Virus record (IMG/VR): IMGVR_UViG_3300045988_182554
Location: 1 to 64,000 of that record
DNA from: a virus
DNA: 64,000 nt
Strand: one strand, 5' to 3'
Below the pieces are notes generated by a model, which was not told where the DNA came from, ran no database searches, and worked only from the letters and a program-made list of their open reading frames with translations. The position numbers and the translations under genes are program-made. Below, one piece after another: positions 5,600 to 58,202 of this stretch. Positions within the stretch are counted from its first letter, which is position 1, and the number at the start of each line of letters is the position of its first letter.

Positions 5600-7040
5600 A
5601 GCGAGCTTACCGCAGGCCGCAGCCCTTGATAGAGGCTCACTCTCCACAGACTTTAAGATTCGGTCGTCCTGACCGTACTGTTCGCCTGTGGTTATGAGGT
5701 GGCTGGCATAGCCAGCATGTCCATTCCTTTCTTTAGAATATTTTCTGCTGCATTTTTATCCCTATCGTGTGATGTATTACACTTCGGGCAGACCCAATGC
5801 CGCACATTGAGGCTTTTAACCTCTTTGTTTTGGTATCCGCAGCAGGAACAGGTCTGGCTGCTTGGATAGAATGTTGGTACTTTGACAACTACTCTTCCTG
5901 CCCAACTGGATTTATAATCAAGTTGTCGAAAAAATTCTCCCCAAGAAGCGTCAGAAATACTTTTAGCAAGGTTACGATTACGAACCATACCCTTTACATT
6001 GAGGTCTTCTACACAGATGATTTGGTTTTCTTTCACCAGTGTGGACGACAACTTATGTAGGGTATCTTTTCGTTTGTTGGTTATTTTTTCGTGGCAGCGA
6101 GCCACCTTGATGCGCTGCTTTTCCCAGTTGGCAGAGCCTTTCTTCTTGCGTGACAGTTTTTTCTGCTCACGCTTTAGTTTAGCTTCCGCTTTCTGTAGAT
6201 ACTTATGGTTTGGATGTTCGTTTCCATTGCTGTCAACAGCAAAAGATTTGATGCCAACATCCAAGCCGATAGCGGCATTCTTAACAGGAAGCGGTGCTAC
6301 TTCTACTTCGCAAAGAATGCTTACATAGTATTTTCCGCTTGCTGAACGACGGATTGTTGCCTTGCAAATACGACCTTCAATGTTGCGGCTTTTGCGATAG
6401 CGCACCTTTCCAAGTGTAGGAAGCTGAATGTACTTATCGTCAACTTTAATGCTTTTTGCTTTAGTAGTTGTATAACTTTCTTCTCCTCTTTTTCGTTTGA
6501 ATTGAGGGAATCCTTTACCGTCTTTGAAAAAGCCTTTATAGGCATTATCTAACTGACGACAGCTATATTTGAGTGCTTGGCTATCCGCTTCTGCAAGCCA
6601 AGGAAGATAGGTCTTCATCTGAGGAAGTAGATTTTGCGTATCAATATAGCTCATGCTTTCGCCGCGCCGCCTATAGGCTTTTATTCGCCTATCTAATATA
6701 GAGTTATATATAAAGCGGCAGCAGCCGAGCGTTTTATTGATTTTTACTTCCTGCTCTTCTGTAGGCTCTAGCCGAAATTTATAGCCTTTATGTACTTTCA
6801 AGGTGATTCACCTCCTTTATGGATTTTTGTACTTGTGAATTGGTCAAACCACCGGAAAAAGTTGAATAGCCTGTTTTTCTCCTCCCACAATTCTTTCTAA
6901 CATAATTATATCATATTTTACAGATGGACGGGCCAAAATCGCAACTTTGTTCATGAATACTTAACCTTTATGCACGAGATTTATTGTTGCCTTAATATAT
7001 AAAACTAGAGCCCCGTCATCTTGGATGGGGCTCTTGAGTT
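5600..7040 (-). mobile_element. IS1341-type (tnpB-only) IS200/IS605 element, approximate extent including presumed ends and omega-RNA region
   Basis: tnpB plus upstream hairpin AGAGCCCC-N12-GGGGCTCT at 7007-7036 and hairpin GCTGGCATAGCCAGC at 5701-5717 near the tnpB 3' end; boundaries not determined. Confidence 0.45.
5692..6801 (-). CDS. tnpB: IS200/IS605-family TnpB (OrfB) RNA-guided endonuclease, apparently intact
   Basis: [11 protein letters not shown]-terminus; Ruv[13 protein letters not shown]; Ruv[10 protein letters not shown]; zinc finger CSCCGYQN...CPKCN; Ruv[15 protein letters not shown]. Confidence 0.9.
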
Positions 7041-11785: not shown

Positions 11786-11823
11786 CTCAAAAGCGCGGTT
11801 TTGTCCGCGCAGCTGCTCCAAAA

Positions 11824-11855
11824 GACAGCCTCCACGCGGCGAGCAGCGGGCAACG
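11824..11855 (+). repeat. conserved leader motif copy 1 (ACAGCCTCCACGCGGCG-N-GGGCAAC)
   Basis: One of three related 30-nt elements (with 55152 and 56961), each embedded in a local stem. Confidence 0.5.
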
Positions 11856-11904
11856 GGAGACAGTTCCGGCAAATTGTCTTTGAGACGGAAGGAGGAAGTG
11901 CCCT

Positions 11905-17272: not shown

Positions 17273-17869
17273 ATGAGCTATGAACCCATTATCACACCGG
17301 GCAGGAATTTCTTTCTTGTCTCGACGGAGTACAAAGAGAGCTGCTCTGCCTGGTGCCGCAAGCAAATTAGAGCGACACTGAGGACCTGTCAGGGACGAGT
17401 CATCATCATTGATGCAACGGGCGAGTACGCGGACTTGGCGCTTGAACATGACAGATTGATTCGAGAGAAAATCCCGTCCATCATTTATCGGTATAAGCTG
17501 GTGGACGGGAAACCGTATATTGCTCATGTCATTGAAGTTGATACGGAAGCAAATGAAGCACCGCACCTGATTGTATACGATATCAGCCGGACCATAATCA
17601 CCAGCTGGAAGGTCGGCGTAGAGGCAATTGATAAAATCCTGCAATCCTATGCCGTGATGCGGGACAGTGAAATCGCGTGGTTGTATGTTCCGCTGGACTT
17701 ATATACCAATGTCAAGCCTGAAACCGAATCCTGGAACATTCTGGAACGAACTATCAAGGGTAATGAAGGCAAGCTCATGACAGTACTGACGACTCGCAAA
17801 TTCACCATTGGGATGGTCCAGCGCTGTTTGCATATGACAAAAAATAAACTTTTGGAGGATAGCAAATGA
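17273..17869 (+). CDS. hypothetical protein
   Basis: AGAGGA RBS; 198 aa. Confidence 0.55.
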   Translation: MSYEPIITPGRNFFLVSTEYKESCSAWCRKQIRATLRTCQGRVIIIDATGEYADLALEHDRLIREKIPSIIYRYKLVDGKPYIAHVIEVDTEANEAPHLIVYDISRTIITSWKVGVEAIDKILQSYAVMRDSEIAWLYVPLDLYTNVKPETESWNILERTIKGNEGKLMTVLTTRKFTIGMVQRCLHMTKNKLLEDSK

Positions 17870-18753
17870 CCAATGAACAGCTGAGAATCGCATTGACGGC
17901 GAATGCCGTTACCAAACAAACCCGAAACCATTTTGGATTCAGTGACCCGTGTGGAAAAACGCTAGAAGAATACAACAAGTCCGCGATGCTGTGCTGCATG
18001 ACAGCGGCGCAGAGAATGAACACGCCGGGTTTTGAGCGTGTTTTGGCTGCGCAGATTTTTCCCTGCTTTACCATTGGCTGCTGGAATCAGACGAAGACGG
18101 TCTATGATTTTGACTACGAGTTTCAGAAAATGCTGATGGATACGGATGACGTGGCAATTCATCAGGATATCCTGCAGCGACTCCCGGTTCGTGATTTCTT
18201 TATCCCGGTGTATGACAGCTACGACTACAACGGTATGTTTGTGCATGTGGAATTCGACGAAAAAGAGAAAACCACAGCTTTCGGTATCGTTCTTGTCGGC
18301 CCCACTAAGGGCAGCCACGATGATTTCACGTTCCTGACTCTGCCTGCCTGGGCCAAAGAAAACCAGAGTTTGACGGAAGCAACCCGGAGTACGAAAGAAT
18401 ACCTGGAAAAGGCAGCAGGGCAGCGGCAAGTAAATGGTATCAGCGTACCGGCTGTGATGGAAGCAGTTCCTTCGGTCTTTGACGGCGGCACACCTTATGT
18501 CCGGCTGGCAATCCTGTGCGCCAACTATCTTGCCAGCAAGAACCCAGATGTCCGCCTTGAAACTTCCAAAAAGCGTGACCGCCCGGTATTCGTGTTTCAG
18601 GGAAAGGCACAGCGAATCAACGTCAAGACATATACCGTTGGTGAGAATGCGGCCAAAGAATACAAAAAGAATGGGGAAGGCAACCCCCCCCGCTGGCGGC
18701 ATTACTGGTGCGGCAATGGCCGGAAACGCCGGGAATGCAAGTTTATTTACTGA
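17866..18753 (+). CDS. hypothetical protein
   Basis: Overlaps previous stop by 4 nt (operonic); 295 aa. Confidence 0.55.
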   Translation: MTNEQLRIALTANAVTKQTRNHFGFSDPCGKTLEEYNKSAMLCCMTAAQRMNTPGFERVLAAQIFPCFTIGCWNQTKTVYDFDYEFQKMLMDTDDVAIHQDILQRLPVRDFFIPVYDSYDYNGMFVHVEFDEKEKTTAFGIVLVGPTKGSHDDFTFLTLPAWAKENQSLTEATRSTKEYLEKAAGQRQVNGISVPAVMEAVPSVFDGGTPYVRLAILCANYLASKNPDVRLETSKKRDRPVFVFQGKAQRINVKTYTVGENAAKEYKKNGEGNPPRWRHYWCGNGRKRRECKFIY

Positions 18754-22923: not shown

Positions 22924-23478
22924 ATGCGTACCAATAAGACAGTAAGCCATATTTACTACGAACTCGACCATGATGTGCAGGAATATGCGAAACGGCTTTT
23001 GGCTAAAAAGATTCTGCACGCGGCACAGCAGGACAATGCCGTTCCGTTTCCTGATGAAACGGCAAAGAGAATTGCCGAGACGGCGGTGTTTCTGACCGAA
23101 CGCCTCACGCTTTTGTATGAGGTCAGTTCTGGCTTTCGAGGCATTCGGTTCAGCGATTCCGGGAAACAACCCGCTGTTTATACTACCATGGTTCAGCGCA
23201 ATGCTCCTTTGTACGATGAGCCGATGCTTGGGCGGGCCTACAACCTCGCCAGCTTCCTTGCCGCTGAAAGTCCCGATATCAGAGAAGTGGTTTTGATGAA
23301 GCATGGGGTTTTGGCGGCAATTTATAATGCTGCTGCGCACATGAAAGAGCGGACTCCGGAGCCGGGAAAAATCTCGGTTCAGAGCCAGCTGTTTGTGTCT
23401 ACGGCAGTTGAGTTGTTTGATGGTCTTTTGAGTACAGCAGTAGAGAAAAAGAACAGCGGCAATAAAACCGCCGCATGA
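22924..23478 (+). CDS. hypothetical protein
   Basis: CAGGAGG RBS; 184 aa. Confidence 0.55.
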   Translation: MRTNKTVSHIYYELDHDVQEYAKRLLAKKILHAAQQDNAVPFPDETAKRIAETAVFLTERLTLLYEVSSGFRGIRFSDSGKQPAVYTTMVQRNAPLYDEPMLGRAYNLASFLAAESPDIREVVLMKHGVLAAIYNAAAHMKERTPEPGKISVQSQLFVSTAVELFDGLLSTAVEKKNSGNKTAA

Positions 23479-23499: not shown

Positions 23500-23952
23500 A
23501 TGATTCGATTCAGAAAAGATACCCCTCGCTACTGGTTTATGAGTAACTATTATTCTTGCGAATTTGTGATGAATGGGATTCGTTACAAGAATGCCGAAGC
23601 AGCGTTTCAGAGCCACAAGGTTCCGCTGGAAGAGCGCAAACAATTTTCAGACATGCCTCCGGCAACGGCTAAGCATTTTGGCCGTCATGTGGCTTTCCCT
23701 GCCAACTGGGACGAAACCCGGGACGATGTAATGCGCCGCGTGGTGATGGCTAAATTCGAACAGAATAAAGACCTCAAGCAGCGTCTCCTCGAAACGGGAA
23801 CGCAGCCAATCGAGGAAGATACCACCAGTTGGCACGATAACTACTGGGGAAACTGCCATTGCCCGAAATGCCGGAACATCCCGGGTCAGAACCGGCTTGG
23901 GATTATTCTGATGGAAACGAGGGACAAGCTAAAAAAACAAACGAGTAAATAA
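23500..23952 (+). CDS. NADAR / YbiA-family (DUF1768) ADP-ribose-processing hydrolase
   Basis: Aligns with E. coli YbiA blocks: FMSNYY...AEAAFQSHKV, MAKFEQNKDLKQRLLETG, YWGN...GQNRLGIILMETRDKL. Confidence 0.85.
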   Translation: MIRFRKDTPRYWFMSNYYSCEFVMNGIRYKNAEAAFQSHKVPLEERKQFSDMPPATAKHFGRHVAFPANWDETRDDVMRRVVMAKFEQNKDLKQRLLETGTQPIEEDTTSWHDNYWGNCHCPKCRNIPGQNRLGIILMETRDKLKKQTSK

Positions 23953-23983
23953 TATTTGCGAGTCATTTCCTTTTTTAAGACAA

Positions 23984-24021
23984 AAGGCTGCCGCCCATCA
24001 CGGGTAGCAGCCTTCTTTTTT
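23984..24021. terminator. bidirectional rho-independent terminator between convergent genes
   Basis: GGCTGC...GCAGCC hairpin with T-runs on both strands. Confidence 0.55.
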
Positions 24022-24024
24022 TGT

Positions 24025-24477
24025 TTAGTGGGTGTCGTGGCACACATGCTCGAAATCGACGAGCAGCTCATTTGCTGCCTTTTGCACACATGCTATGGCC
24101 GGTTCATCCTTGACTTTTTCAGGTAAAAGGATAAGGCACGGACGGTTAATATCAGTTGAGCTGCTATAGTGGCAGGAGAGCAACTCTTCTCCAAATTCGT
24201 GATTAAGGGCGGAGGCAAGACATTTACCGAGCAAAGCACAATCCTCATCTTTCGCCAAAAGCCTATCCGCCTCATCGTAGTTAATGCGGCCGTTATCGAG
24301 ACATATACGGTCAAGAAATGCACGAACAGAAGCAGATGCGCTCATGGCATCTATAGTCTGACGATGATTCTCAAGAAAAATGCAAAATATCGGCTTTTCG
24401 ATTTCATCCAAGTAAAAGCCAAGGCCGGTAATACGGGTATTGGTATCGGTTTGTGTCATAGGAAACACCTCATCCAT
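24025..24477 (-). CDS. hypothetical protein
   Basis: 150 aa minus-strand ORF convergent with NADAR gene, sharing a bidirectional terminator. Confidence 0.5.
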   Translation of the reverse strand: MDEVFPMTQTDTNTRITGLGFYLDEIEKPIFCIFLENHRQTIDAMSASASVRAFLDRICLDNGRINYDEADRLLAKDEDCALLGKCLASALNHEFGEELLSCHYSSSTDINRPCLILLPEKVKDEPAIACVQKAANELLVDFEHVCHDTH

Positions 24478-24513
24478 TATGGCAGCGAATCACCTTGCCG
24501 CATTCAGAACAAC

Positions 24514-26400
24514 TCACTGAACAACTTCGCCAAGGTCATTTGCGTATTTCGGGTCACACATCATGAAATAGTTGACGGGGCCGTACTCCAGACCGAGCTC
24601 CTGCGCGTATGCCTTGATGACTTCCAGAACGTCCTCTTTCTTGAGATTATACTTGGAATGCAGACGGGCAAACTCTTTGTCAGAGACAGAAACGCAAGAG
24701 CAATTTTCTGCATCGGTTTCTTTGCTGCCCAGCATCCCGTCAAAGATGTCCTGTCCTGCACAGAGAGTCGTCTCATTGTTCATCGCATAGGCGATAACGG
24801 AAGCCTTACAGTCAAAGTCGCTGGCTTCCACAAGGAAATCCTCAGGGCGGCCGTGACGTTCAACAACGTTTTCATAGATGTCCCGGAGTTCGATAGGGGC
24901 AGAAGGAGCGGTCAGCGCTGCTTTATGAAGGCGCATGAATTCCACAAACTTTTCATCCGAGAGGGTGTCGGTATAAAAGCCGATGCCGGAAACGCGAACC
25001 TTCACTTCGCTGGCAAAGTAATCGTCAATTTTGGAGACGATTTTCTGCTGGACCCGCTTGTATGCTTCCTGAACATTGGAAGCCGTGTAAAATACCGGGA
25101 ACTTCATGATGTCGATTCCCTCCGGCAGACTCGCGTCATAGGCCGCATCAATGCCGCCTCGCAGCGCCGGAACCGCGTCATGCAGCTCTTTCACAGAAGA
25201 AATGTATCCGGTAATGTACAGCTCATCGTTTTTGCTGTAATGCCCGATAAGTCCCACATAGAGGGTCTGCATCAGCATCCGCTTGAAGCTGAACCAACAA
25301 AGACGAATGGGTAGAATGACATTAGCAGCCGTACCTTCCGCACGATAGGTGCCGGGGGCAGAGACCTTTTCCAGCAGAATCTGGTCGTTCTTGTCACCGT
25401 ATTTTTCCTTGAAAAGAGCTTGAAGAATTTCAGTGGACGAAAGAGGAGTGGACATTGGAATCGTTTCATTCAGAAAAGAGAGGAATGCATCCACGTTGTC
25501 TTTCTGCCATGCGTCATCAGACATGCTTGCACGCTGCATAGAGAGCTTGTCTTTCCCGTCGTCAGGCAAGGGCTCATACCCACAGGCGATACGAAGCTCG
25601 TTCTCCGTGACAGCATCCGTTGCGCTTGCAATTTTCTTGATGGTATTCTCGGTCGGCTGAGCTTTTGCGTTGCCATTCACGAGGCTGCTGATATACCCAC
25701 GAGTCAGTCCTGCCTGAAACGCAAACTTACCCTGTGTGCGGGTTCCGATGGCTTTTTTGACCAACGATGCCAGCCTTTGAAAGTCGGGCTCTTTGGGAAA
25801 GGTGGCCTCCGTATCTTTATTGCTGTTCTTTTCAAGTACCGACTTGTCCCAACCGGTGACAAGAGAATACCCAATATCCTTCAAGGATTGATAGGCAACC
25901 CCGTTCTGGTCAAGAGCCGGGGAGAATGTACCGCTGTTATCTTCCAGCTGCTCTACTGCCTCACGCACCATCCTTGCTTCGTTCATCAGGATGACGTCCG
26001 GGGCCTCAAGCCGGGCAAGACTCTTGTACCGACTATTGAGGCGCTCGACTCGTGCGGCCAATGCAGTGATGTCATCAAGTTGGTCCTTCGTTGCATGGGC
26101 AGAGATATCTGCACCAAGTTCAAAATGGTTCAGTGCAGGAATATCCACGCCTTTGCTCTTGGCGAATTCCACAATGGCTTCCGCGCCATAAAAACGTTTC
26201 TCATGGGCTGCGACAACTTTCGTTATCGTGTCGGCCGAGTTGTCCAGCTCAAGCACTTCACCTTTTCCGGCATCCTCGACATAACACCTGGCGTTGGTGA
26301 GAAAGCCTTTCAAAAAATCAGCATCCACATCCAGCTTCTTAGCGATGCCGGGCAGCTGCTTATAGAAAATCACGCGCGTGGCGAGGTTAACAGAAATCAT
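24514..26400 (-). CDS. large protein with internal XRE-type HTH
   Basis: 628 aa; HTH-like FAFQAGLTRGYISSLVNGNAKAQPTENTIKKIA; overlapping plus-strand ORFs read as antisense junk. Confidence 0.6.
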   Translation of the reverse strand: MISVNLATRVIFYKQLPGIAKKLDVDADFLKGFLTNARCYVEDAGKGEVLELDNSADTITKVVAAHEKRFYGAEAIVEFAKSKGVDIPALNHFELGADISAHATKDQLDDITALAARVERLNSRYKSLARLEAPDVILMNEARMVREAVEQLEDNSGTFSPALDQNGVAYQSLKDIGYSLVTGWDKSVLEKNSNKDTEATFPKEPDFQRLASLVKKAIGTRTQGKFAFQAGLTRGYISSLVNGNAKAQPTENTIKKIASATDAVTENELRIACGYEPLPDDGKDKLSMQRASMSDDAWQKDNVDAFLSFLNETIPMSTPLSSTEILQALFKEKYGDKNDQILLEKVSAPGTYRAEGTAANVILPIRLCWFSFKRMLMQTLYVGLIGHYSKNDELYITGYISSVKELHDAVPALRGGIDAAYDASLPEGIDIMKFPVFYTASNVQEAYKRVQQKIVSKIDDYFASEVKVRVSGIGFYTDTLSDEKFVEFMRLHKAALTAPSAPIELRDIYENVVERHGRPEDFLVEASDFDCKASVIAYAMNNETTLCAGQDIFDGMLGSKETDAENCSCVSVSDKEFARLHSKYNLKKEDVLEVIKAYAQELGLEYGPVNYFMMCDPKYANDLGEVVQ

Positions 26401-26614
26401 GGTGTACTCCTTTCAAATATGTCATTAGCTGTACAATGCTGTCATCTTCTGTAATTATAATAGCACATCCCGCACCAAAAAGCAAGCATGAATTTACAAA
26501 AAATGACAAGAAAATACACAAGATGACATATTTGGGCAAAGCAATTGATTCTTGAGCTTTCCGGCTTGGTGACGGAACAAGCTCTATGCGCCTTGTCTTT
26601 ACCACAGTTTTGCC

Positions 26615-26642
26615 TTGTGCATCCGTGCGAATTAAATACAAT
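26615..26642 (+). promoter_or_regulatory. promoter-operator copy 8 (TTGTGC-16-TACAAT)
   Basis: Spacer CGTGCGAATTAAA; upstream of acidic protein gene. Confidence 0.6.
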
Positions 26643-26691
26643 TAAAGATGTCGAAAGATAAAGCACAACACACAAAAAAGGAAATTTCACT

Positions 26692-27012
26692 ATGAACACC
26701 AGTATTTTGAAACTCGAAGCCACTGTAATCCGTCCCAAAGATTTTGACGAACTCGACGGCCTCGCCGCTTCCATCAGCTTCCCTGTCGAATACGATGATG
26801 AAGCAATTGGTGAGGCCCTGGGCGACCAGGACCTGATGGCCTATGTCGTCGGAGAGCTGCACGACCTCGTTGTCCGTATGCGTCCCGAATGGCTGGATAA
26901 TGAGGATACTAGCCTGACCATCAAGGCATTCCTGGACGAAGCTGAGTACCAGACGTTCAAGGGCCTTGTCGCGATGAAAGAAGACAGCTACACCTTTGTT
27001 ATTGAGGGCTAA
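26692..27012 (+). CDS. small acidic hypothetical protein
   Basis: 106 aa, strongly D/E-rich. Confidence 0.55.
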   Translation: MNTSILKLEATVIRPKDFDELDGLAASISFPVEYDDEAIGEALGDQDLMAYVVGELHDLVVRMRPEWLDNEDTSLTIKAFLDEAEYQTFKGLVAMKEDSYTFVIEG

Positions 27013-27137
27013 ACACCACAGAGCAAAAAGCAAACCCTGCCTGCAGTAAAATGCGGGTAGGACTTTTTTGTTTGCGTAGCTGCATCCTTTTGTCCACAGA
27101 AACCGTAGGTGCCAGGATGCGTAGCTGCCGACACGGC

Positions 27138-27165
27138 TTGACCTGATGTGCGAGGCTCGTACAAT
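27138..27165 (+). promoter_or_regulatory. promoter-operator copy 9 (TTGACC-16-TACAAT); no ORF before next promoter, possible short transcript
   Basis: Spacer TGTGCGAGGCTCG. Confidence 0.45.
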
Positions 27166-27243
27166 CAGATTTGTACGACAGATATCAAACGCAAAATATG
27201 GTTTACATTGAGCTGCTCAGTGGCCTTATGGCTGTTGGGCGGC

Positions 27244-27271
27244 TTTTTCTTTTGTGCGAGTTGCGTACAAT
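27244..27271 (+). promoter_or_regulatory. promoter-operator copy 10 (weak -35; TGTGCGAGTTGCG-TACAAT)
   Basis: Upstream of lipoprotein-macrodomain operon. Confidence 0.5.
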
Positions 27272-27296
27272 AAAAATCAAGCGGAGGAAACAACCA

Positions 27297-27703
27297 TGAA
27301 AAAATTTATTGGAATTGTTTTAGTGTTGTGCAGCTTGGCCTTGCCTTTAGCTGGCTGCAAAGAAGCCATCAGCACCGTGACTTGTAACACAATATCTGAA
27401 CTCGAAGATATTCCGGGTCAGATATTGTCTACACCGGAAAGCGCTGAAACGGAACCGGAATACAATTACATCCATTTTCGTTACGACAACATCTGGACTG
27501 TATCTGCCCTCGTGAACTACGAAATCGTGGACAACGGCCAAAACATAAAATTTGAAATCAACGATAGTCGCTATCGAGACAAGGTTTTTTATACCAGCAT
27601 GTCGAATGTAGAGCTCGTATACCGAGACGATAGCGTTGATTATGGCACGGACTACACCATTTATCCAGGGAATGCTTCGAAATTCGGAAAGGGTGGTAAG
27701 TAA
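27297..27703 (+). CDS. lipoprotein, hypothetical
   Basis: Signal peptide MKKFIGIVLVLCSLALPLAGC with lipobox. Confidence 0.6.
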
Positions 27704-27704
27704 G

Positions 27705-28181
27705 ATGGGTATTAAATTTATCGACGGCAATATTTTTTCACGACTTTCTGCGAGTAAGCCAACTTACATTTGCCAGCAAGTAAATTGCAAAGGTGTAATG
27801 GGAGCTGGACTTGCCATGCAAATTTGCATCCAATGGCCGGTGGTATATCGGCGCTATCTGGAGTTTTGCCATGGAAACGACGGCAACAAGCTCGGTACTT
27901 ATCAGGAGGTTCTGGTAGAACCGAAGCTGTATGTCGTGAATCTGTTCGGGCAGAATGGTTATAGCCGAGGTGAAAGGCAGACGAATTATGCTGCACTGGC
28001 GGCTGCGCTGTTCTCGTTTTTTAGAGACTGCGCTCAAAAGTATCAGGACGTAACTATCCGGTTGCCATATGGTTTAGGCTGCGGACTTGCCGGAGGCGAC
28101 TGGGACACGGTTCTGGACATCATCAGCGATGCAGCAAAAGCCTGGAATCTGAATGTTGAGATTTGGGAACTCCAGAAATAA
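27705..28181 (+). CDS. standalone macrodomain protein of DarG/TARG1 type (ADP-ribosyl hydrolase)
   Basis: YICQQVNCKGVMGAGLAMQI matches NC-GVMG-G-A-Q signature of TARG1/DarG macrodomains. Confidence 0.8.
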   Translation: MGIKFIDGNIFSRLSASKPTYICQQVNCKGVMGAGLAMQICIQWPVVYRRYLEFCHGNDGNKLGTYQEVLVEPKLYVVNLFGQNGYSRGERQTNYAALAAALFSFFRDCAQKYQDVTIRLPYGLGCGLAGGDWDTVLDIISDAAKAWNLNVEIWELQK

Positions 28182-29883: not shown

Positions 29884-30570
29884 ATGATTGAGCAGAAAGA
29901 CAGTGAAATTTTGGAGCTCGCGGGGTTTGCAGACCGGAACAGAAAGGCCAGGGAGGTTCATTCAGAGCCTATTTTCGTACAGGTGAACAGCAAGCTGGCA
30001 GCCTACACGATACCAGGAATGCGTTCGGAAGGAACGACCTATGATGTTCCGACTTACTCGGCACTGAAAGGTGCAATGGATTCCATCTACAAACATGTCG
30101 GTATGGAAGCGATTCCGACGGCGGTGTACATTCACTCTCCTATAAAAAAGACACGTATCCTGCTGCGAAATATTGAGAACATCGAAGGAATGCGCTCCCG
30201 CGAATGCTTAACGGATGTTTGCTACACGGTCGTTGTACGAATCGTAAGAATGGATAACATGGCTTTAGAAAGCGACCTCACAGTGCAGTACAGGAATTTC
30301 TTAGAGTATGCTTCCGACAGCTGTGGGATGGGATATCCGTATCTTGGCGTGATGGAAACACCCATGTATTTCCATCCTGTAACGGAAGCTGAAATCCTTC
30401 CGACGCTGCCCATCACATCTGATTTGTGCAACATGCCTCTGACGCCGGATTATACGAACGAATTTGAACCGGATTTGGTTTGCAGGCATCTTCGCATCGA
30501 GAATGGTGTCATCGATTTTACGAAGGGGGAGTATTTTCGCTGTTATGGATATTCTGAATGCGCTGGTTAA
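29884..30570 (+). CDS. cas5c: Cas5c (Cas5d) type I-C Cascade subunit
   Basis: TYDVPTYSALKGAMDSIYKH ... RNIEN resembles the Cas5c core SYDV-TPSAARGILEAIYWKP ... RRNEV; precedes and overlaps cas8c. Confidence 0.8.
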   Translation: MIEQKDSEILELAGFADRNRKAREVHSEPIFVQVNSKLAAYTIPGMRSEGTTYDVPTYSALKGAMDSIYKHVGMEAIPTAVYIHSPIKKTRILLRNIENIEGMRSRECLTDVCYTVVVRIVRMDNMALESDLTVQYRNFLEYASDSCGMGYPYLGVMETPMYFHPVTEAEILPTLPITSDLCNMPLTPDYTNEFEPDLVCRHLRIENGVIDFTKGEYFRCYGYSECAG

Positions 30571-32491
30571 GCACTATGATGCGATGGCAGCAGCTGGAAA
30601 TGCAACGCCTTTCGGCTGGACACACAAGTTTGCTCAATATGCCGTCGAACTAAACGATGACGGAGAAATCGATAGGATTTTCGCTCTCGGTGATTTATCC
30701 GATAAAAAGAACAAAGGCGAGGAATTCAAGATGCCAACACGCAGGCCACGGTCTGGCAAGCTGCCGATTCCGTATGTGTTCTGTGATGATGCGGAACATC
30801 TTCTCGGCAAAGTCGGTGAAGCGAGCAATCTTGTTCGATACACTATGATGCGCGACGCAGTCTTTATGCTGCGTGACCTGTTGGGACATTCTAAAGCCTT
30901 AGATGTCGTCTACAAGTTCTACGAAACGTGGGACCCAGAAAAGGCGCTTGACAATAAATGTGTCAGCGACGTAATGGAGGCGAAAGGCCAGGAAAAGAAA
31001 ACCTTTATCCTGTTCTACAATGGCGTTCCAGTTTTTGATGATGAGACATTTCGCAAAAGCTATGCGGCGATTGTCAATAAATATGGGGAAATGCCGATTG
31101 ATACACTCAAGGGCGGTGAAATTGCTCTGTTGCCGGAACCTATCAAGATTCGAAGCATGATAAGCGGCAATATCGGGTTTAAGGCTCGCTTGTTTCGAGC
31201 CATCACGGCATGGGGAAACAAAAAGAATGGCCCTGTCACAAACACTCTTTTGTCCAACAACAAAGCAAACACCGAGTATTTCGGACGTCAGCAGGGCAAC
31301 GCCATCCCCATCACAATGCAAGATGAACATAAGATTTACGAAGCGGCTACAGATTTGCTCGGCTCCAAACATCGGTTTCCGGTTCCGGCCACTTCACAGT
31401 CTCTTTATTCAAAGAATCAAATTATCTGGTCGGATGATATGCCAACAAAGCTGGAAGACGCGGTCATTGACCTATGCTGTTGCCGCAGTGATAAAGCTAA
31501 AACTATCTCTCAGGCAAATGAATCAGGTTCTGAAACCACTATCAGAATCCTTGAAAAAACAAAACTCTATCAGGGACGAATCACGGTTCTTTCGGACATT
31601 GAAAAGAACTTAGTCGTCAACGTCTGGAATCTTGATATGAATAATAAGGGATGTTCTGCATCCAGCTTTACGCAGATGACGCTTGACGAGCTGCTTGGAA
31701 ACTTTGCCAAGCATTACACTGACATGGAAATTGACCGAAGCCAGACTTGCCGAGATGCGGATGGAACCAGCCGAGATTTTGCAAGAGCCATCAACATCTA
31801 CAACTCACTTTTCGCCAAAAACAGTGATGGAAGCACGAGTTCTTTCAACAACGCTCTTTGGAAACAACTGAGTATCAGCATTTATTCCGGAACAAAGTAT
31901 CCGGAGCAAGTCCTTTCCCTGGCACTGCTTCGGTCCTGCCGTTTGCTTCAGCAAAATAAGAAAGGCAAAGAAAATCGCATCACGGCGTCTTTGGCCGGTA
32001 TCACAAAAGCGTTCTTAATTCGCAATTACGGAGAGAATATGACGATGGGACTCAACTCAAACAACACCAGCCCTGCTTATATCACAGGACGAATCTTCGC
32101 ACATATGGAAAGTGCGCAGAGAAAGATTGACCCCAACAACCAAACCACTTACGCTAAACGGTTCTTTGAGCGAGTTATGATGAACCCGGCCAAAACCATG
32201 CCGGAACTTCACAAGAGTTTCCTTCTTTTGAAGAACAAGGCTAAAGCAAATGGCATGAGAGGTCTTTATAATTCCAGCGACAAGAAAATTATGGCTCTTA
32301 TCGATATGCTGGATGGCAACTATCCCGACCATCTATCCGAAAAGCAAAAAGGTGAATATCTCGTCGGATACTATCAGCAGCGAAGCGCAAACATCAAGGA
32401 TGCCGAGGAGAAGAAAAACCGGAAAGCCGCCAAAATTGAAACTAATAATACGGATACTGCGACAACCGTTGCAACACAAAAGGAGAAGTAA
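30545..32491 (+). CDS. cas8c: Cas8c (Csd1) type I-C large subunit
   Basis: MDILNALVKHYDAMAAAG N-terminus (Csd1 MILQAL..YY pattern); about 650 aa; start overlaps cas5c by 26 nt. Confidence 0.85.
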   Translation: MDILNALVKHYDAMAAAGNATPFGWTHKFAQYAVELNDDGEIDRIFALGDLSDKKNKGEEFKMPTRRPRSGKLPIPYVFCDDAEHLLGKVGEASNLVRYTMMRDAVFMLRDLLGHSKALDVVYKFYETWDPEKALDNKCVSDVMEAKGQEKKTFILFYNGVPVFDDETFRKSYAAIVNKYGEMPIDTLKGGEIALLPEPIKIRSMISGNIGFKARLFRAITAWGNKKNGPVTNTLLSNNKANTEYFGRQQGNAIPITMQDEHKIYEAATDLLGSKHRFPVPATSQSLYSKNQIIWSDDMPTKLEDAVIDLCCCRSDKAKTISQANESGSETTIRILEKTKLYQGRITVLSDIEKNLVVNVWNLDMNNKGCSASSFTQMTLDELLGNFAKHYTDMEIDRSQTCRDADGTSRDFARAINIYNSLFAKNSDGSTSSFNNALWKQLSISIYSGTKYPEQVLSLALLRSCRLLQQNKKGKENRITASLAGITKAFLIRNYGENMTMGLNSNNTSPAYITGRIFAHMESAQRKIDPNNQTTYAKRFFERVMMNPAKTMPELHKSFLLLKNKAKANGMRGLYNSSDKKIMALIDMLDGNYPDHLSEKQKGEYLVGYYQQRSANIKDAEEKKNRKAAKIETNNTDTATTVATQKEK

Positions 32492-32493
32492 CA

Positions 32494-33456
32494 ATGTCTG
32501 AACTCGTTAAGAATCCTATCACCATTGTTCTAGCGTTTGATGCGCAGAACTGTAATCCCAATGGGGACCCCGACAACGACAACAACCCGCGTCAGTTTGA
32601 GGATGGAATCGGGTACATGTCGTCCGAAAGCATCAAATATAAGATTCGCAGCTACATCCGTGACAAGGTCTTGTTTGACGGTCTGGAAAAGAACAGCCAT
32701 GCACTATATTGCAGCCCCGATACTTTTTCCATTGAGCGCAGCGTTAAAGAGTGCCTGGAGCCTATCATCGGCAAAAAAACCAAAGGCATCCCCGATGACC
32801 AGCAGCTGGAGGCTTATAAGGAGCTGTGCCGGTACTACTATGATACTCGCATGTTTGGGCTTGTGAATACGAGTTATTCCAACTGCAGCCTTCTCAACCG
32901 CATCAAGGGTGCCTGCCAGGTATCTATGCCGATGTCCTATGACCCTATCGAAATCATCCCGATGACGATTACTCGCTGCTGCGTTGCTTCCGATGCTGAA
33001 CGCAAAGGCGAAGATAAAGGCGCCAAGAAGGGCGTCAGTATCGACGAAAGCGACGATGGAGCCGAAAAGAAGACGAAAGACCACATGATAGGCCGTCGAA
33101 GCATTATCAGATATGGGCTGTATCACATGAGCATTCAAATCAACAGTGCAATGGCACAGCGTAACGGTGTTACGATGGATGACGTTAATTTGTTGATTGA
33201 TGCGCTGCAGCATATGTTCGAGGAAGATATGAGCTCCAGCAGAGCCCTAACGCTGCGTAAGTTGTTTGTCGTTGAACACACCAAACCGATGGGAAATGCT
33301 TATCGGGACACCATTGAGCGGGCACTGGCGGCTCGACTGAAGCAACCTAATGATGCACCTACATCTTATGAGGATTACGAGGTGACTTATCACCGCGAAA
33401 TGCTGCCTGATGAGGTCAAGGTGACTGAGTATAATTATAACAGTCAAAGCGTTTGA
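32494..33456 (+). CDS. cas7c: Cas7c (Csd2) type I-C backbone subunit
   Basis: AFDAQNCNPNGDPDNDN hallmark NPNGDP motif; AAGGAGAAG RBS. Confidence 0.9.
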   Translation: MSELVKNPITIVLAFDAQNCNPNGDPDNDNNPRQFEDGIGYMSSESIKYKIRSYIRDKVLFDGLEKNSHALYCSPDTFSIERSVKECLEPIIGKKTKGIPDDQQLEAYKELCRYYYDTRMFGLVNTSYSNCSLLNRIKGACQVSMPMSYDPIEIIPMTITRCCVASDAERKGEDKGAKKGVSIDESDDGAEKKTKDHMIGRRSIIRYGLYHMSIQINSAMAQRNGVTMDDVNLLIDALQHMFEEDMSSSRALTLRKLFVVEHTKPMGNAYRDTIERALAARLKQPNDAPTSYEDYEVTYHREMLPDEVKVTEYNYNSQSV

Positions 33457-33781: not shown

Positions 33782-33864
33782 AGCCCTAATAAGATAAAAA
33801 TTGTGCCCTGACGGCATCTGAATTGGATGCTGCCGGGGCATTTTTGTTGTTAGGAGATATAGCT

Positions 33865-36585
33865 ATGACGCTGAACGACTTGTCAAGCGAACAACAGGAA
33901 TTCGTACATTTGGCATTGTCGGGAAAAAACGTATTGTGTGACGCCTGCATTGGCAGCGGAAAGACATCGACCATCAACGTGCTCTGTGATGCGTACCCTC
34001 CAGAACGGCGTATCCTGTACTTGACCTATAACCGATTACTCAAACTTGACGCCAAAGACAAAATCAAAAATCATAATGTCTTGGTCCAGAACTATCACGG
34101 ATTTGCAAGCCTGCTGCTGAACAAAAAGAGAATCCGGAATTGCGGACAGGGCGAACAGCTTGCCATGGTATTGGAAAAGAAAATTCCGATTCCGCCAATT
34201 GATACTCTTATCATTGACGAGTATCAGGATATCAATGACGAGATTGCAGAACTGCTCAAATATATCCGTTCTAAGAATCCGGGCCTTCAAATCGTCGCAG
34301 TGGGCGATATGAAGCAGAAAATCTACGATGATACAGCGCTGGATGTCTGGGAGTTCATGCAGGATTTTCTCGGCCGCCATGAACAGGTGGTTTTCACGAA
34401 ATGCTTCCGTATTTCTCATGACTTGGCAGAACGACTCGGCAATATCTGGGGCAAGACCATCAACGGCGTAAATAGCTCCTGTATCGTGGAACAGATGTCG
34501 GTCGATGAAGTGACAGAGTTCCTGAATAAGCAGAACCCCAAAAATGTCCTTTGCCTGGGTGCTCGAATTGGAGCCATGACGAAGGTGCTCAATGACTTAG
34601 AGAATCGACCGGGGAACCTCTATGACAAGCATCATGTCTATGCAAGTATCGCAGACAATGATGGGAATAAGGCGGTAGCACCCTCCTCGGATGTTGGTAT
34701 CTTCACAACTTTTGACGGCAGCAAAGGTATGGAGCGGCCTATCTGCGTTGTGTTTGATTTCACGGAAGAATACTGGTCGTCTCGCACAAGCAAACCGATG
34801 GCACGATATGAGATTCTTCGGAATCTGTTTTGTGTCGCAGCAAGCCGAGGAAAGCAGCGGATTATCTTCGTAAACTCAGACCATCCGTTGAGCGATAAAT
34901 CTCTGATGACCCCAACTGAAACTCTTCGCGGATTTCCGCATCCGTTCGCATTTTCTGAGATGTTTGACCACAAATTCATCGAAGATGTGGATGCTTGCTA
35001 TAAGCTGCTGGAAGTCACACCGATTGAGCACAACGACAATACGACCATCGATGTGCAGGCAGCGGATGCCATGATTGACTTGTCTCCCTGCATCAGCATC
35101 TATATGCAGGCAGGGTTCTTCAACTCCTACGACATTGATGACGCACTTGCATATTATATGGACCTACACAAGGACATGCAGTATTTGAAAATCAAGAAGG
35201 GCGCAACGGTCGAGGATAAGGTTCTGCTGCTCACGGCGCTTGAAACGAATCAGTGCCGGTATGTAAAACAGGTCAAGCCTCCTTTTGTGAACGCAAAAGC
35301 CAAAATGTCGCTCAGTATGCGGCTTGGCACCGTGTTCACTCCCGATGAGTATGTTCAGGCACGCGGAGATATCGACATTCATACTAATGACCATAAAGTG
35401 ATTTATGCCTCGGGCCTTGCGGATGTCGTAAAGAACAGCACCGTCTACTGCATCAAGTTCATCAGCAGTCTGGCACACAAGCATTTTCTGCAGTGTGCGT
35501 GTTCTATGATTGCGCTGGGTCTTCCATATGGCGTTGTCTGGAACGTGAAAAGTAACCTGATGTACAGCGTAAAAATCAAGGATAAGGACGCTCTGATTGA
35601 CGCAATCCTCAAGTGCATCACGAAACGAGCTTACAACGGCGCGGATTATTACACCTGCCGAAAAGGCTTTGTACAGGATACGGCATCGATTATCGACCGC
35701 TGGACTGACGACGGATATGCGGAAGAACCCACCGCCATCACTTCTGGCGACGGTATCGCCATCATCAAGCAGGAAAGCCGCTATTTTGTGATGGATGGAG
35801 CACGCCGAAACACTCTGAACGATAATTTTGGGCTTGGTTTTGCCGATGTGAAAGACGCTTGTCTTGCTTATGCGAAGAGTTGCGAACTTCAAAAAACCGT
35901 GGACCATGATTCTCCTTATTCCGAAGTCGAGTTCTGGCTCGACCAGAACAAGGCGTTTGAAGAATACATGACTCAGGTAAGCCATGAAATCGAGCAGCAC
36001 GAAGAAGGACCGTATGCAAAATACAAGTCTTTCGCTACGCCTGCTGTCCGAAAGATGCTGGCGGAAAAGGGACTGACCATCACGTTCCCGGAAAAAGTCC
36101 TCATCAAGGTTTGGAAGATGCGCCGTGTCGAAGATGCCATGTATCAGAAAATCGAAGAAGCAAAGAAGCAGAACAGCTCCAATGTACCGCTTGATGAGGC
36201 GTTCTTTGACTCTGAACTGGTGGATTCCGTCGAAGGAAATACCGAAAACACCAAGGCAAAAGCCAAACCCCAAAAGGAATCCGCATTGCCGTTCTCCAAG
36301 TACGGTGTAGATGAGAAAAAGAGCTACCGTGTCGTGAAAAGCGATGAGCTCTCAAAGCCCAACCAGCCCCGTTATGTTGTGGTCGAGGCCGCAACTGATA
36401 AGGTCCTGGACAATGCTAACGGATATGGCTACCTTTCCTATCAGGCTGCCTGGAAAGGCTATTCGTACAAGAGCAAGCATCATCTGGACGGCACGAAGAA
36501 ACCGATGAGTAAGAGTGCAAAAGAGCAGGCAAAGAAAAAGGCGGCTTTCTTCTCGACCGATTCGGAGCAGCTCAGCTTTGGCTGA
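33865..36585 (+). CDS. UvrD/PcrA-like SF1 helicase with long C-terminal region (possible nuclease)
   Basis: CIGSGKTSTI Walker A; LIIDEYQDIND motif II; TAGGAGA RBS; C-terminal about 450 aa unassigned. Confidence 0.8.
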   Translation: MTLNDLSSEQQEFVHLALSGKNVLCDACIGSGKTSTINVLCDAYPPERRILYLTYNRLLKLDAKDKIKNHNVLVQNYHGFASLLLNKKRIRNCGQGEQLAMVLEKKIPIPPIDTLIIDEYQDINDEIAELLKYIRSKNPGLQIVAVGDMKQKIYDDTALDVWEFMQDFLGRHEQVVFTKCFRISHDLAERLGNIWGKTINGVNSSCIVEQMSVDEVTEFLNKQNPKNVLCLGARIGAMTKVLNDLENRPGNLYDKHHVYASIADNDGNKAVAPSSDVGIFTTFDGSKGMERPICVVFDFTEEYWSSRTSKPMARYEILRNLFCVAASRGKQRIIFVNSDHPLSDKSLMTPTETLRGFPHPFAFSEMFDHKFIEDVDACYKLLEVTPIEHNDNTTIDVQAADAMIDLSPCISIYMQAGFFNSYDIDDALAYYMDLHKDMQYLKIKKGATVEDKVLLLTALETNQCRYVKQVKPPFVNAKAKMSLSMRLGTVFTPDEYVQARGDIDIHTNDHKVIYASGLADVVKNSTVYCIKFISSLAHKHFLQCACSMIALGLPYGVVWNVKSNLMYSVKIKDKDALIDAILKCITKRAYNGADYYTCRKGFVQDTASIIDRWTDDGYAEEPTAITSGDGIAIIKQESRYFVMDGARRNTLNDNFGLGFADVKDACLAYAKSCELQKTVDHDSPYSEVEFWLDQNKAFEEYMTQVSHEIEQHEEGPYAKYKSFATPAVRKMLAEKGLTITFPEKVLIKVWKMRRVEDAMYQKIEEAKKQNSSNVPLDEAFFDSELVDSVEGNTENTKAKAKPQKESALPFSKYGVDEKKSYRVVKSDELSKPNQPRYVVVEAATDKVLDNANGYGYLSYQAAWKGYSYKSKHHLDGTKKPMSKSAKEQAKKKAAFFSTDSEQLSFG

Positions 36586-43966: not shown

Positions 43967-45127
43967 ATGAAACTCAAAAACAATCTATTCCGGAGCACGG
44001 CGGCAATCATCGCTACGCTCCTTGCACTCAGCTTCACCGGCTGCGGTCAGAATCCGATAATATCGGAAAGTCCATCCAGCACCGGGGTCGTCTCAGAAAG
44101 CACTGCAAGCAGTGAACAGACGGCTGGCGGTTCGGTGGACGGCAGCTTTACGATTCACTTTTTAGACGTAGGACAGGCGGATTCCGCCCTTATCACCTGC
44201 GACGGCCACTCAATGCTCATTGATGGCGGCAATGTCGATGATTCTAACGTTCTTTACTCTGTCATGCAGCGTGAAACCGATGAACACCTGGATTATGTCG
44301 TTGGAACCCACGCACACGAAGACCATATCGGCGGTTTGTCCGGTGCCTTTGAGGCCGTCACTGCGGACATGACTCTATGCCCTGTGACAGAATACGACAG
44401 CAAAGCATTTCGGGACTTTGCAAGCTACGCGGAGCAAAAAGGCGGAGGCATCACGATACCGGATGTGGGTGAAACCTACACTCTGGGGGAAGCGGAATTC
44501 ACGATAGTTGGTGTTAATTCTGTTCCCGATGACACGAACAATACTTCGATTGTTTTGCGTATTGTCTATGGAGACACCTCGTTCCTCTTTACCGGAGATG
44601 CGGAACAGGAAGCGGAAAACGTGATACTTGCATCGGGACAAGACATTCAGTCAACAGTTCTGAAAGTAGGGCACCATGGCTCAAGTACATCTACCTCAGA
44701 GGCTTTTCTGGATGCGGTAAATCCAACATATGCTGTGATTTCTTGTGGCACAGGGAACAGTTACGGTCATCCACATCAGGAAACACTCGACAAGTTGCAA
44801 AACAAAGGTGTCGAGGTTTATCGCACAGACCTGCTGGGCGATATTTACTGCACCTCGGATGGCAAAGAGGTAAGTTTCACTTCCGGTGAATATCATGATG
44901 AAAATCGGATTGAAGCCGGTAGTGCTGTAGGTTCCAAGGATGAACAGGACAAAGCTTCACTTGTCATAGACGAGACATACGTTCTGAACACGAGCACTAT
45001 GAAGTTTCACAAACCCGATTGCTCTGCAGTCGAATCGATGAGTCAAAAGAATCGAATCGACTATATGGGGCCCCGCGATGAGCTCATCCAGGAAGGGTAT
45101 TCGGCGTGTGGGATTTGCAAACCATAA
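43967..45127 (+). CDS. secreted lipoprotein with ComEC/Rec2-type metallo-beta-lactamase fold
   Basis: Lipobox LSFTGC; HAHEDHIGG (HxHxDH) motif; later GHHGS; Cys-rich C-terminus. Confidence 0.8.
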   Translation: MKLKNNLFRSTAAIIATLLALSFTGCGQNPIISESPSSTGVVSESTASSEQTAGGSVDGSFTIHFLDVGQADSALITCDGHSMLIDGGNVDDSNVLYSVMQRETDEHLDYVVGTHAHEDHIGGLSGAFEAVTADMTLCPVTEYDSKAFRDFASYAEQKGGGITIPDVGETYTLGEAEFTIVGVNSVPDDTNNTSIVLRIVYGDTSFLFTGDAEQEAENVILASGQDIQSTVLKVGHHGSSTSTSEAFLDAVNPTYAVISCGTGNSYGHPHQETLDKLQNKGVEVYRTDLLGDIYCTSDGKEVSFTSGEYHDENRIEAGSAVGSKDEQDKASLVIDETYVLNTSTMKFHKPDCSAVESMSQKNRIDYMGPRDELIQEGYSACGICKP

Positions 45128-54959: not shown

Positions 54960-55151
54960 ACAATTGTTCTCAGGAAGAGGAACGGCTCCTGAGACATCAA
55001 GGTTTTCCTTTCCCCAATCTTGGTCGCATGGCTTCATTTGAGCTGACACAGGTGAAGCGTGAAAATCATCCGTTTCATAGTAATATCCTTCCTTTCATAC
55101 CTCTTTATTTCCCATTTGGCGCGGGTAACTCCGCGCCAGCCGTCCAAGCAA

Positions 55152-55183
55152 ACAGCCTCCACGCGGCGGACGGTGGGCAACAG
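55152..55183 (+). repeat. conserved leader motif copy 2
   Basis: ACAGCCTCCACGCGGCGGACGGTGGGCAACAG, preceded by the same GCGCGG...CCGCGC hairpin as copy 1. Confidence 0.5.
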
Positions 55184-55223
55184 ATGTTTCCGTGTTCCGG
55201 GCATCTGGCTAATGTTTGTATTT

Positions 55224-56195: not shown

Positions 56196-56233
56196 TCACC
56201 AAATTAAGCGATAATAGGAAGGAGATGAATTCT

Positions 56234-56617: not shown

Positions 56618-56647
56618 CGCTATTTGGCGGGCTTGACCCGCCATCAT

Positions 56648-58153: not shown

Positions 58154-58202
58154 TTTGCCATCCTCTAACTAACGGTAATCGATAGTTTTTCCTCCTTGCT
58201 GT

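Follow-up and report, generated by a model that had tools for sequence, protein, structure and literature searches.

Gene content of the interval 23500-28181

The DNA analysed here comprises positions 1 to 64,000 of the IMG/VR virus record IMGVR_UViG_3300045988_182554 (the window), and our subject is two genes in its interval 23500-28181, one encoding a NADAR-domain protein and the other a macrodomain protein. An earlier note on this DNA had read the two genes as a mobile element's counter-defence against both classes of DarT, the toxins that attach adenosine diphosphate-ribose (ADP-ribose, ADPr) to guanine (DarT1) or thymidine (DarT2). From the open reading frames of the window, six plausible genes can be placed in the interval, and they are given below with their immediate neighbors and the signals between them (lengths in amino acids, aa, or nucleotides, nt; pI, isoelectric point; HTH, helix-turn-helix).

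22924-23478, plus strand, orf184, directly 5' of the NADAR gene with a 22-nt gap
23500-23952, plus strand, NADAR gene, 150 aa, pI 9.3, the end of a helicase-orf184-NADAR run
23984-24022, between the convergent NADAR gene and orf150, GC-rich hairpin followed by a T7 run
24025-24477, minus strand, orf150, convergent with the NADAR gene
24514-26400, minus strand, gene for an HTH protein of 628 aa
26692-27012, plus strand, gene for an acidic protein of 106 aa, pI 4.05, which lies ahead of the macrodomain cassette in relatives
27036-27061, terminator of the acidic 106-aa gene
27138-27165, plus strand, promoter-like site TTGACC-16-TACAAT 5' of the lipoprotein-macrodomain operon, identified by consensus match only (10/12 positions)
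27210-27245, hairpin with a T-run in the leader of the lipoprotein-macrodomain operon
27296-27703, plus strand, gene for a predicted lipoprotein of 135 aa, signal peptide with lipobox LAG-C
27705-28181, plus strand, macrodomain gene, 158 aa
28189-28219, plus strand, intrinsic-terminator-like hairpin of 14 pairs with a T-run, which ends the lipoprotein-macrodomain operon before the RlaP gene
directly 3' of the macrodomain gene, RlaP nucleotidyltransferase gene (Pfam PF10127, E 4.9e-21)

The NADAR gene begins exactly where it had been placed, at 23500, and has a good ribosome-binding site. The hairpin downstream of it was read directly from the sequence (AAGGCTGC...GCAGCCTT then CTTTTTTT); the terminator scan did not report it, and it is likely a bidirectional terminator that closes the NADAR transcription unit. 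For the macrodomain gene the stop at 28181 was also exact but the start was not: a TTG at 27636 had been proposed, and we assign the start to the ATG at 27705 because the TTG falls inside the lipoprotein gene and because the homologues are 155-158 aa long (they begin M-x-I-K). The stop codon of the lipoprotein gene lies 1 nt before this ATG, from which we conclude that the two genes are co-transcribed, and the pair stays together in relatives. The lipoprotein itself has no family match in Pfam, PHROG or PADLOC. A distance of 3.7 kb, containing two minus-strand genes, separates the NADAR gene from the macrodomain gene, and each of the two has its own terminator; the description of them as separate cassettes was thus accurate.

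The NADAR protein

That the first of these genes encodes a NADAR protein, as claimed, is borne out at every level. Its score against Pfam PF08719 is 92.3 bits (gathering cut-off 35.1, E 5.2e-26) over profile positions 2-163 of 163, it matches PHROG 1017 (E 4e-36), and among proteins of solved structure it matches Escherichia coli YbiA (2b3w, E 1.5e-13) and Phytophthora PnNADAR (8bau, E 3.5e-9). The AlphaFold model, for which 21 sequences were aligned, has a predicted local distance difference test score (pLDDT) of 95.9 and, in Foldseek comparisons, template modelling (TM) scores of 0.84 to YbiA 2b3w and 0.79 to PnNADAR 8bau, and no fold other than NADAR/YbiA was matched. Residues were numbered by mapping HMMER alignments to the PDB entries onto the roles assigned to PnNADAR residues (Schuller et al., 2023, PMC11543638). 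By this mapping E33, K40, E106, D113 and W116 correspond to PnNADAR E43, K50, E125, D130 and W133, respectively, and all five are invariant in the 21-sequence alignment A1, so that the predicted catalytic residues (E33, K40 and E106), a check of which the earlier note had asked for, are in place.

One correction concerns the subtype of this NADAR. NADAR proteins are divided by a residue in the last strand, which is Glu in YbiA and others, Asp in the DarT1-linked BC4488 and His in the phage proteins gp30.3/AdfN (PMC11125620). The protein here is of the Glu type (E106) and is a bare domain of 150 aa that begins at the first core strand without an extension, which places it in the YbiA family in the strict sense. 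It is not a DarG1 of the DarT1-linked BC4488 type, since it has Glu106 and not Asp, has no basic N-terminal extension and has no DarT that we could find; nor does it belong to the AdfN/gp30.3 family, having Glu106 and not His and scoring 17.4 bits against PF08010 where the cut-off is 36.

After the DxxW motif (window 23854-23874, NADAR residues 119-125) the protein carries a Cys-rich insert, G-N-C119-H120-C121-P-K-C124, which is specific to its clade, being kept in the closest NADAR homologues and not in YbiA; it may be a small metal-binding (zinc) knuckle. The closest phage relatives are found in SPbeta-like phages, Phass-1 and AR9/PBS1 (42-46% identity), and homologues are present in 538 GenBank phage records. 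Database copies of the NADAR are often short or fused (proteins P0130, P0150, P0154, P0162, P0173 and P0177), and some were probably cut by contig ends. In-frame fusions to Cas7, TnpB-TNB or RRXRR/HNH domains occur, and in two related loci (L021 and L037) Cas genes directly follow the NADAR gene, where they take the place of orf150 and of the whole HTH gene or the greater part of it. The 3' flank of the NADAR gene is an insertion hot spot.

Because the genes beside the NADAR could be hidden toxins, orf184 and the minus-strand orf150 were examined for this possibility, and neither has a family or PDB match (orf184 was searched against Pfam, PHROG, PADLOC and PDB). All 71 homologues of orf184 come from this phage lineage and are 74-100% identical to it; across close loci its identity is 72-100% versus 97-99% for full-length copies of the flanking helicase. 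This hypervariability suggests diversifying selection, as in anti-defence proteins of the inhibitor type, and it seems unlikely that orf184 has an ADP-ribosyltransferase (ART) fold.

The macrodomain protein

The Pfam check gave opposite results for the two proteins: whereas the NADAR lies far above the cut-off of its family, the second protein scores only 14.8 bits against Macro PF01661, under the gathering cut-off of 22. Even so, we regard its identity as a macrodomain as certain, because PDB, PADLOC, PHROG and model evidence agree. Matches to sequences of solved structures comprise SCO6735 (5e3b, E 6e-13), BT1257 (2afc/2fg1, E ~4e-11), Poa1p (E 1.5e-7) and DarG (5m31/5m3i, E ~2e-4, best 1.8e-4). 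The PADLOC DarG model is matched at E 2.3e-13 over only positions 2-144 of its 329, PHROG 335, which is labelled "phosphatase", is matched at E 6e-35, and more distant homologues of the same family carry the PF01661 annotation. The structural model (pLDDT 89.4) has 188 Foldseek matches to PDB macrodomains at E <= 1e-3, with TM scores of 0.87 to BT1257, 0.81 to Poa1p, 0.76 to TARG1, 0.76 to DarG and 0.74 to SCO6735. The two phosphate-binding loops, GVMGAGLA (G-x-M-G-x-G) and GCGLAGG (G-C-G-L-x-G-G), are conserved in 30 homologues, most of their positions being invariant. In both proteins, then, structure prediction agreed with the domain that had been called.

What kind of macrodomain is it? 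It had been described as DarG/TARG1-type, of which only the broader placement stands. At the position of TARG1 K84 and DarG K80 it has Gln83, the equivalent of SCO6735 Q85, and its Asn27 corresponds to SCO6735 N27; among the 30 homologues Q83 is invariant and N27 nearly so, so that here too the residues expected to matter are kept. Such a Gln separates the homologues of SCO6735/ALC1 from those of TARG1/DarG (PMC9411070). The protein is of the ALC1-like class and, judged by these residues, of the SCO6735/BT1257 subclass, and not of the Lys type. It is not a TARG1, whose dyad is Lys84/Asp125, as Gln83 stands in place of the Lys (through the equivalence of SCO6735 Q85 and TARG1 K84), and it is not a DarG2, as it has Gln83 and not Lys80 and has no C-terminal DarT-binding domain, and no DarT was found. 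The loop from Q83 to Y95 contains two basic residues, R88 and R91, where SCO6735 has K89/K94. This loop is 3 residues longer than that of TARG1, by a count against what we take to be the TARG1 sequence, and in an alignment to the same sequence Ala129 of the GCGLAGG loop presumably stands at the position of TARG1 Asp125. At the position of SCO6735 V25, for which a backbone role had been proposed, the protein has Gln. Homologues are present in 871 GenBank phage records.

The search for a DarT and an ART-clan gene pair

The earlier note had stated that no DarT gene accompanies the two hydrolases, and so far as DarT itself is concerned we agree. Among roughly 60 open reading frames scanned across the 64-kb window none matches DarT PF14487 in Pfam, and PADLOC and PHROG revealed no DarT among the genes neighboring the NADAR and macrodomain genes. 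A six-frame search of the window (tblastn and phmmer --max), for which the only query was the Pseudomonas aeruginosa 505 DarT2 (sequence from PMC13309987) and no DarT1 was used, gave a best E of 0.5, which is noise. The statement needs a qualification, however, for a non-adjacent gene of the ART clan with a partner of its own is present:

48860-49312, plus strand, DUF3990 gene (ART clan; PADLOC PDC-M10A), Pfam E 1.3e-51, PADLOC E 9.5e-78
49309-49758, plus strand, gene for its PDC-M10B partner, 149 aa, overlapping the DUF3990 gene, PADLOC E 4.9e-54

DUF3990 belongs to the ART clan of Pfam (PMC7955679), and PADLOC lists PDC-M10A/B as a candidate defence pair, an uncharacterised module of two genes with an ART-like member. 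The gene lies 20.7 kb downstream of the macrodomain gene and 25 kb from the NADAR gene, and an identical DUF3990 protein occurs in 8126 assembly blocks in constant synteny, which marks the pair as part of the backbone of this lineage. The NADAR matches component C of the PADLOC candidate system PDC-M42 (E 3.3e-14), and DUF3990 matches its component A weakly (E 8.1e-5). Taken with YarT-YbiA, in which a NADAR of the YbiA type is antitoxin to an ART other than DarT (PMC11125620), these matches lead us to conclude that ART-NADAR pairings beyond DarT1 probably exist. Geobacillus virus E3 has both a DUF3990 and a macrodomain of the Gln-type family found here.

The replicon, its host and variation among its relatives

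We take the element that carries the two genes to be an uncultured huge phage of roughly 270 kb that is very common in the gut. The NADAR protein recurs unchanged in 4048 assembly blocks, the contigs of which measure 200-275 kb and by their record names appear to be human-gut metagenomes, and close copies in IMG/VR comprise 31 that are near full length and one cut by a contig end, on viral contigs that reach 222 kb. A scan of 185,579 representative genomes of bacteria and archaea gave no NADAR relative of more than 45% identity, and a megablast search with 24 kb around the locus drew no near-identical match from the phages of GenBank or the plasmids of PLSDB. At the protein level the nearest relatives belong to Firmicutes phages (SPbeta-like, AR9/PBS1 and Geobacillus E3), and the host is probably a gut Firmicute. 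The window contains no structural genes, and the designation as a phage rests on the relatives in IMG/VR, the phage protein relatives, the absence of relatives among the genomes searched and a large set of RNA genes: 21 transfer RNA (tRNA) genes and a transfer-messenger RNA (tmRNA; 59973-60372; tag DNNRYASPIAA), all on the plus strand and spanning 55224-62427 with small open reading frames interspersed. ARAGORN also called, at 56648-56723, an unusual tRNA whose anticodon has just two bases ("ca"); Rfam did not report it.

The ribozyme of Faecalibacterium prausnitzii that resembles that of hepatitis delta virus (RF02682) was matched twice above its gathering score, at 11812-11881 (58 bits) and 55139-55219 (50 bits); these matches are a possible hint of a host like Faecalibacterium. 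The end of the second lies 4 nt ahead of the tRNA-Thr(UGU) gene at 55224, an arrangement like that of theta ribozymes beside phage tRNAs.

Variation at the locus was followed in 38 close relatives, of which 16 extend to the downstream anchor, a UvrD-like helicase, and can be scored. The macrodomain cassette is present in 12 of these 16 and not in the other four (L011, L021, L026 and L037); three further relatives, L006, L010 and L015, also have it and are cut off within Cas genes. Other insertions, placed between the HTH and acidic genes, bring methylases, GmrSD/HNH or RRXRR homing endonucleases. RlaP accompanies the macrodomain in most relatives, yet the macrodomain occurs without RlaP in L001, L019 and L022 and RlaP without the macrodomain in L011. 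A functional macrodomain-RlaP unit was considered and rejected in view of the terminator between the two genes and their independent presence and absence. That the NADAR block is syntenic in all loci compared reflects ascertainment, as the loci were found through the NADAR. Sitting in a self-contained operon that only some of a group of near-identical genomes possess, the macrodomain gene behaves as accessory cargo, as anti-defence cargo typically does, and the picture of stand-alone genes on a mobile element is in keeping with this and with the huge phage that carries them.

Other features of the window

A variable insertion of type I-C Cas5, Cas8c (Csd1) and Cas7 genes lies at 29884-33456 without Cas3, Cas1, Cas2 or Cas4, followed by the UvrD-like helicase at 33823-36585. 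This trio is present in 5 of the 38 close relatives (L006, L010, L015, L021 and L037), and no array of clustered regularly interspaced short palindromic repeats (CRISPR) was found in the 64-kb window by TRF and a direct-repeat search. At 17866-18753, in the conserved block 5' of the helicase, is a gene for a 295-aa protein whose orthologues on related contigs are annotated PF26125 (AcrVA2-like). In addition to this AcrVA2-like gene and the Cas5-Cas8c-Cas7 trio, the window has a type I methylase with an S subunit, an HD_4 hydrolase, several Mor-type activators, PHROG families and a TnpB. Cargo at 53-2000, 5692-6801, 43967-45127 and 46787-47527 includes a Y-family (ImpB/UmuC-type) polymerase, a YpsA SLOG protein, an IS605 TnpB on the minus strand, a 386-aa hydrolase of the metallo-beta-lactamase fold and a small radical S-adenosylmethionine protein. 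It is speculation that the translesion polymerase helps the phage to tolerate modified templates alongside erasers of base ADP-ribosylation.

Two further features had been cited as part of an anti-defence load. The "small alarmone hydrolase" is the HD_4 protein encoded among the tRNA genes at 58439-59143 (plus strand, 234 aa; Pfam PF13328, E 3.6e-9; PHROG 990, E 1.9e-48; motif HDTVED), which is of RelA/SpoT type and consistent with that name without proving it. Of the two "acidic small proteins", that at 26692-27012 fits the description, but the product of 45319-46059, although acidic (pI 4.5), has 246 aa and is not small.

Possible functions of the two hydrolases

We consider it somewhat better than an even bet (a probability of about 0.55) that the two genes encode orphan, antitoxin-like hydrolases of ADP-ribosylated nucleic acid that serve this huge gut phage as enzymatic counter-defence. 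The substrates, base specificities and role assigned here are drawn from published homologues. The NADAR would split ADP-ribose from guanine at the N-glycosidic bond in single-stranded phage DNA, E33 and E106 acting around the distal ribose and K40 at the diphosphate; the guanine marks would be those written by DarT1-type or other guanine-specific ARTs. The macrodomain would remove ADP-ribose from thymidine, written by DarT2-type toxins, likewise on single-stranded phage DNA, and would do so in the manner of SCO6735, with Q83, held by N27, positioning the distal ribose instead of the catalytic Lys of DarG/TARG1. Since the target of each enzyme would be the modification and not the toxin, whichever toxin shared its base specificity could be neutralised.

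Published experiments make this the best reading available. The orphan NADAR gp30.3 of T4 (AdfN) takes off the marks of DarT1, and two unrelated NADARs from phages, Bas32 and Bas60, neutralise DarT1 and let phages escape DarTG1; none of the three counters DarTG2 (Johannesman, Carlson & LeRoux, 2024, PMC11257639). Similarly, DarTG2 is overcome by an orphan macrodomain, gp104 of PhiKZ (AdfM) (Morgan et al., 2026, PMC13309987). SCO6735 clears thymidine ADP-ribose (T-ADPr) written by DarT, both in vitro and in cells, and rescues E. coli from DarT2; in the Q85A and N27S mutants little or nothing is left of the T-ADPr hydrolysis (Hlousek-Kasun et al., 2022, PMC9411070). All NADARs tested, E. coli YbiA included, hydrolyse ADP-ribosylated guanine (G-ADPr) in vitro (PMC11125620). 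Further support comes from unrelated phages in which the two enzyme types travel together. On an unrelated viral contig of 238 kb (L045, IMGVR_UViG_3300045988_170940) a Gln-type macrodomain gene (3119-3655) abuts a NADAR gene (3656-4072) in what looks like a dedicated two-enzyme operon; Nitrincola phage 1M3-16 carries both types (orf88 and orf8); and Bas61/EmilieFrey (name mapping from PMC8594841) has a homologue of the macrodomain and carries NADAR-Bas60 (PMC11257639).

Several observations weigh against counter-defence. E. coli YbiA and T4 gp30.3, though active in vitro, gave no rescue of E. coli from DarT1 in vivo in one study (PMC11125620), so that the efficacy of bare NADARs in the cell cannot be assumed, and the basic N-terminal extension of DarT1-linked NADARs, a proposed binder of single-stranded DNA, is missing from the protein here. 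In the macrodomain, the mobile loop after the Gln is, by sequence alignment, 2 residues shorter than in SCO6735, and Ala34 occupies the position of SCO6735 K34. To these we add the Poa1p and phosphatase matches and the internal source of ADP-ribosylation that the conserved ART-clan gene represents, each of which leads to a different explanation.

Could the two proteins instead serve RNA repair or the housekeeping of metabolites of nicotinamide adenine dinucleotide? The macrodomain would then be an ADP-ribose-1''-phosphate phosphatase like Poa1p, or a scavenger of soluble ADP-ribose derivatives, working with RlaP and the tRNA set, and the NADAR an N-glycosidase acting not on DNA but on small molecules such as riboflavin intermediates or immune signals derived from ADP-ribose. 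Such roles were proposed for the Macro and NADAR domains of jumbo phages by Iyer et al. (2021, PMC7824862), and they accord with the RlaP gene directly 3' of the macrodomain gene here and in most relatives, with the strong match to Poa1p, which is among the top structural matches, with the annotation of PHROG 335 and with the fact that the best solved relative of the NADAR, YbiA, is a riboflavin-intermediate N-glycosidase. However, RlaP is set apart from the macrodomain by a terminator and distributed independently of it, and a Pfam scan of the 64-kb window found no RNA ligase, Tpt1/KptA or 2H phosphoesterase. Moreover, the nearest characterised member of the macrodomain's subclass, SCO6735, is a T-ADPr DNA hydrolase whose required Gln/Asn pair is invariant or nearly so here, and YbiA itself cleaves G-ADPr in vitro. 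On balance we think housekeeping unlikely. We give still less credence to self-protection, in which DUF3990 (PDC-M10A) would modify nucleic acids of the host or of competitors while the NADAR, the macrodomain or both keep the phage's own genome or transcripts clean or reset the mark. In its favor are the membership of DUF3990 in the ART clan and its place in the lineage backbone, the PDC-M42 matches which, with YarT-YbiA, point to ART-NADAR pairings beyond DarT1, and the coexistence of DUF3990 and a macrodomain of the Gln-type family in Geobacillus virus E3. But DUF3990 is 25 kb and 20.7 kb distant from the two genes and has in the translationally coupled PDC-M10B an obvious candidate for immunity, and the macrodomain cassette is dispensable in relatives whereas DUF3990 is in constant synteny wherever examined.

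That the genes are ordinary parts of DarTG-type toxin-antitoxin systems whose toxin gene lies nearby, as the match to the PADLOC DarG model might have implied, is effectively refuted: neither Pfam, PADLOC nor the six-frame search with DarT2 revealed a DarT in the 64 kb, the macrodomain has neither the DarT-binding C-terminal domain nor the Lys, the NADAR has neither the Asp nor the N-terminal extension of DarG1, and the neighboring genes are lineage-specific ORFans or encode a lipoprotein. A bolder idea, to which we attach slightly less weight than to self-protection in general, is that of a phage-borne writer/eraser system, in which the DUF3990 ART would be offensive and the NADAR and Gln-type macrodomain would keep the phage's own DNA or RNA clean. 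In a milder version, the Gln-type macrodomains of PHROG 335, with their 871 phage records, may be a second, mechanistically distinct and very widespread anti-DarT2 class.

If counter-defence is the true role, a highly prevalent jumbo phage of the human gut would be guarded from DNA ADP-ribosylating defences of either known base specificity, and DarTG-like systems would exert real pressure in gut Firmicutes. The AdfM concept would also widen from the Lys type (DarG2-like) to the Gln type (SCO6735-like), whose members in hundreds of phage genomes bear no label but "phosphatase". Nevertheless, phages with both hydrolase types already existed and a counter-defence reading is not new: it is plausible precisely because orphan phage NADARs and AdfM have been shown to defeat DarTG1 and DarTG2, and the gain is incremental for the same reason, orphan antitoxin-like hydrolases being experimentally established as phage counter-defence. 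The new points are modest, namely that a very prevalent gut phage carries a macrodomain of the Gln type and a bare NADAR of the Glu type.

Comparison with known systems

Macro and NADAR domains in jumbo phages were catalogued in the survey already cited (PMC7824862). With DarG1 and DarG2 the two proteins here share the same hydrolase superfamilies and the same chemistry, and the macrodomain matches the PADLOC DarG model, but they have no adjacent DarT, the macrodomain is without the Lys and the toxin-binding C-terminal domain, and in the NADAR both the Asp and the N-terminal extension are missing. YbiA of E. coli is like the NADAR in its bare fold and last-strand Glu. The two are 29% identical, however, and the protein here is encoded by a phage, carries the Cys-rich insert and stands beside no ART gene. 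In vitro, NADARs of the YbiA type cleave G-ADPr, and they can be antitoxins to ARTs other than DarT, as in YarT-YbiA (PMC11125620).

Among phage proteins, AdfN and the Bas32 and Bas60 NADARs (the last two judged by description only) resemble the NADAR in standing alone, with no DarT partner and no N-terminal extension. E36/K43 of AdfN correspond to E33/K40, and the role that we propose as shared is the removal of DarT1-made guanine ADP-ribose. AdfN differs in having His in the last strand and in belonging to PF08010, whereas the protein here has Glu106 and the CxCxxC insert. AdfM, which removes DarT2-made thymidine ADP-ribose (PMC13309987), is likewise a stand-alone macrodomain of a jumbo phage, and the Asn of its (V)N motif is kept (N23 in AdfM, N27 here). 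It is 26% identical to the macrodomain here (E 2e-6), is DarG2-like with a Lys in "PTKD" where our protein has a Gln in "FGQN", and belongs to PhiKZ, of whose phage-nucleus context no sign is evident here.

The closest likeness is to SCO6735 of Streptomyces coelicolor and BT1257 of Bacteroides thetaiotaomicron, which are the best matches in sequence and structure and share with the macrodomain the Gln, the equivalent of Asn27 and what may be a lengthened basic loop. These two are chromosomal bacterial genes under DNA-damage control, whereas their counterpart here, with a loop 2-3 residues shorter, travels as the cargo of a phage.

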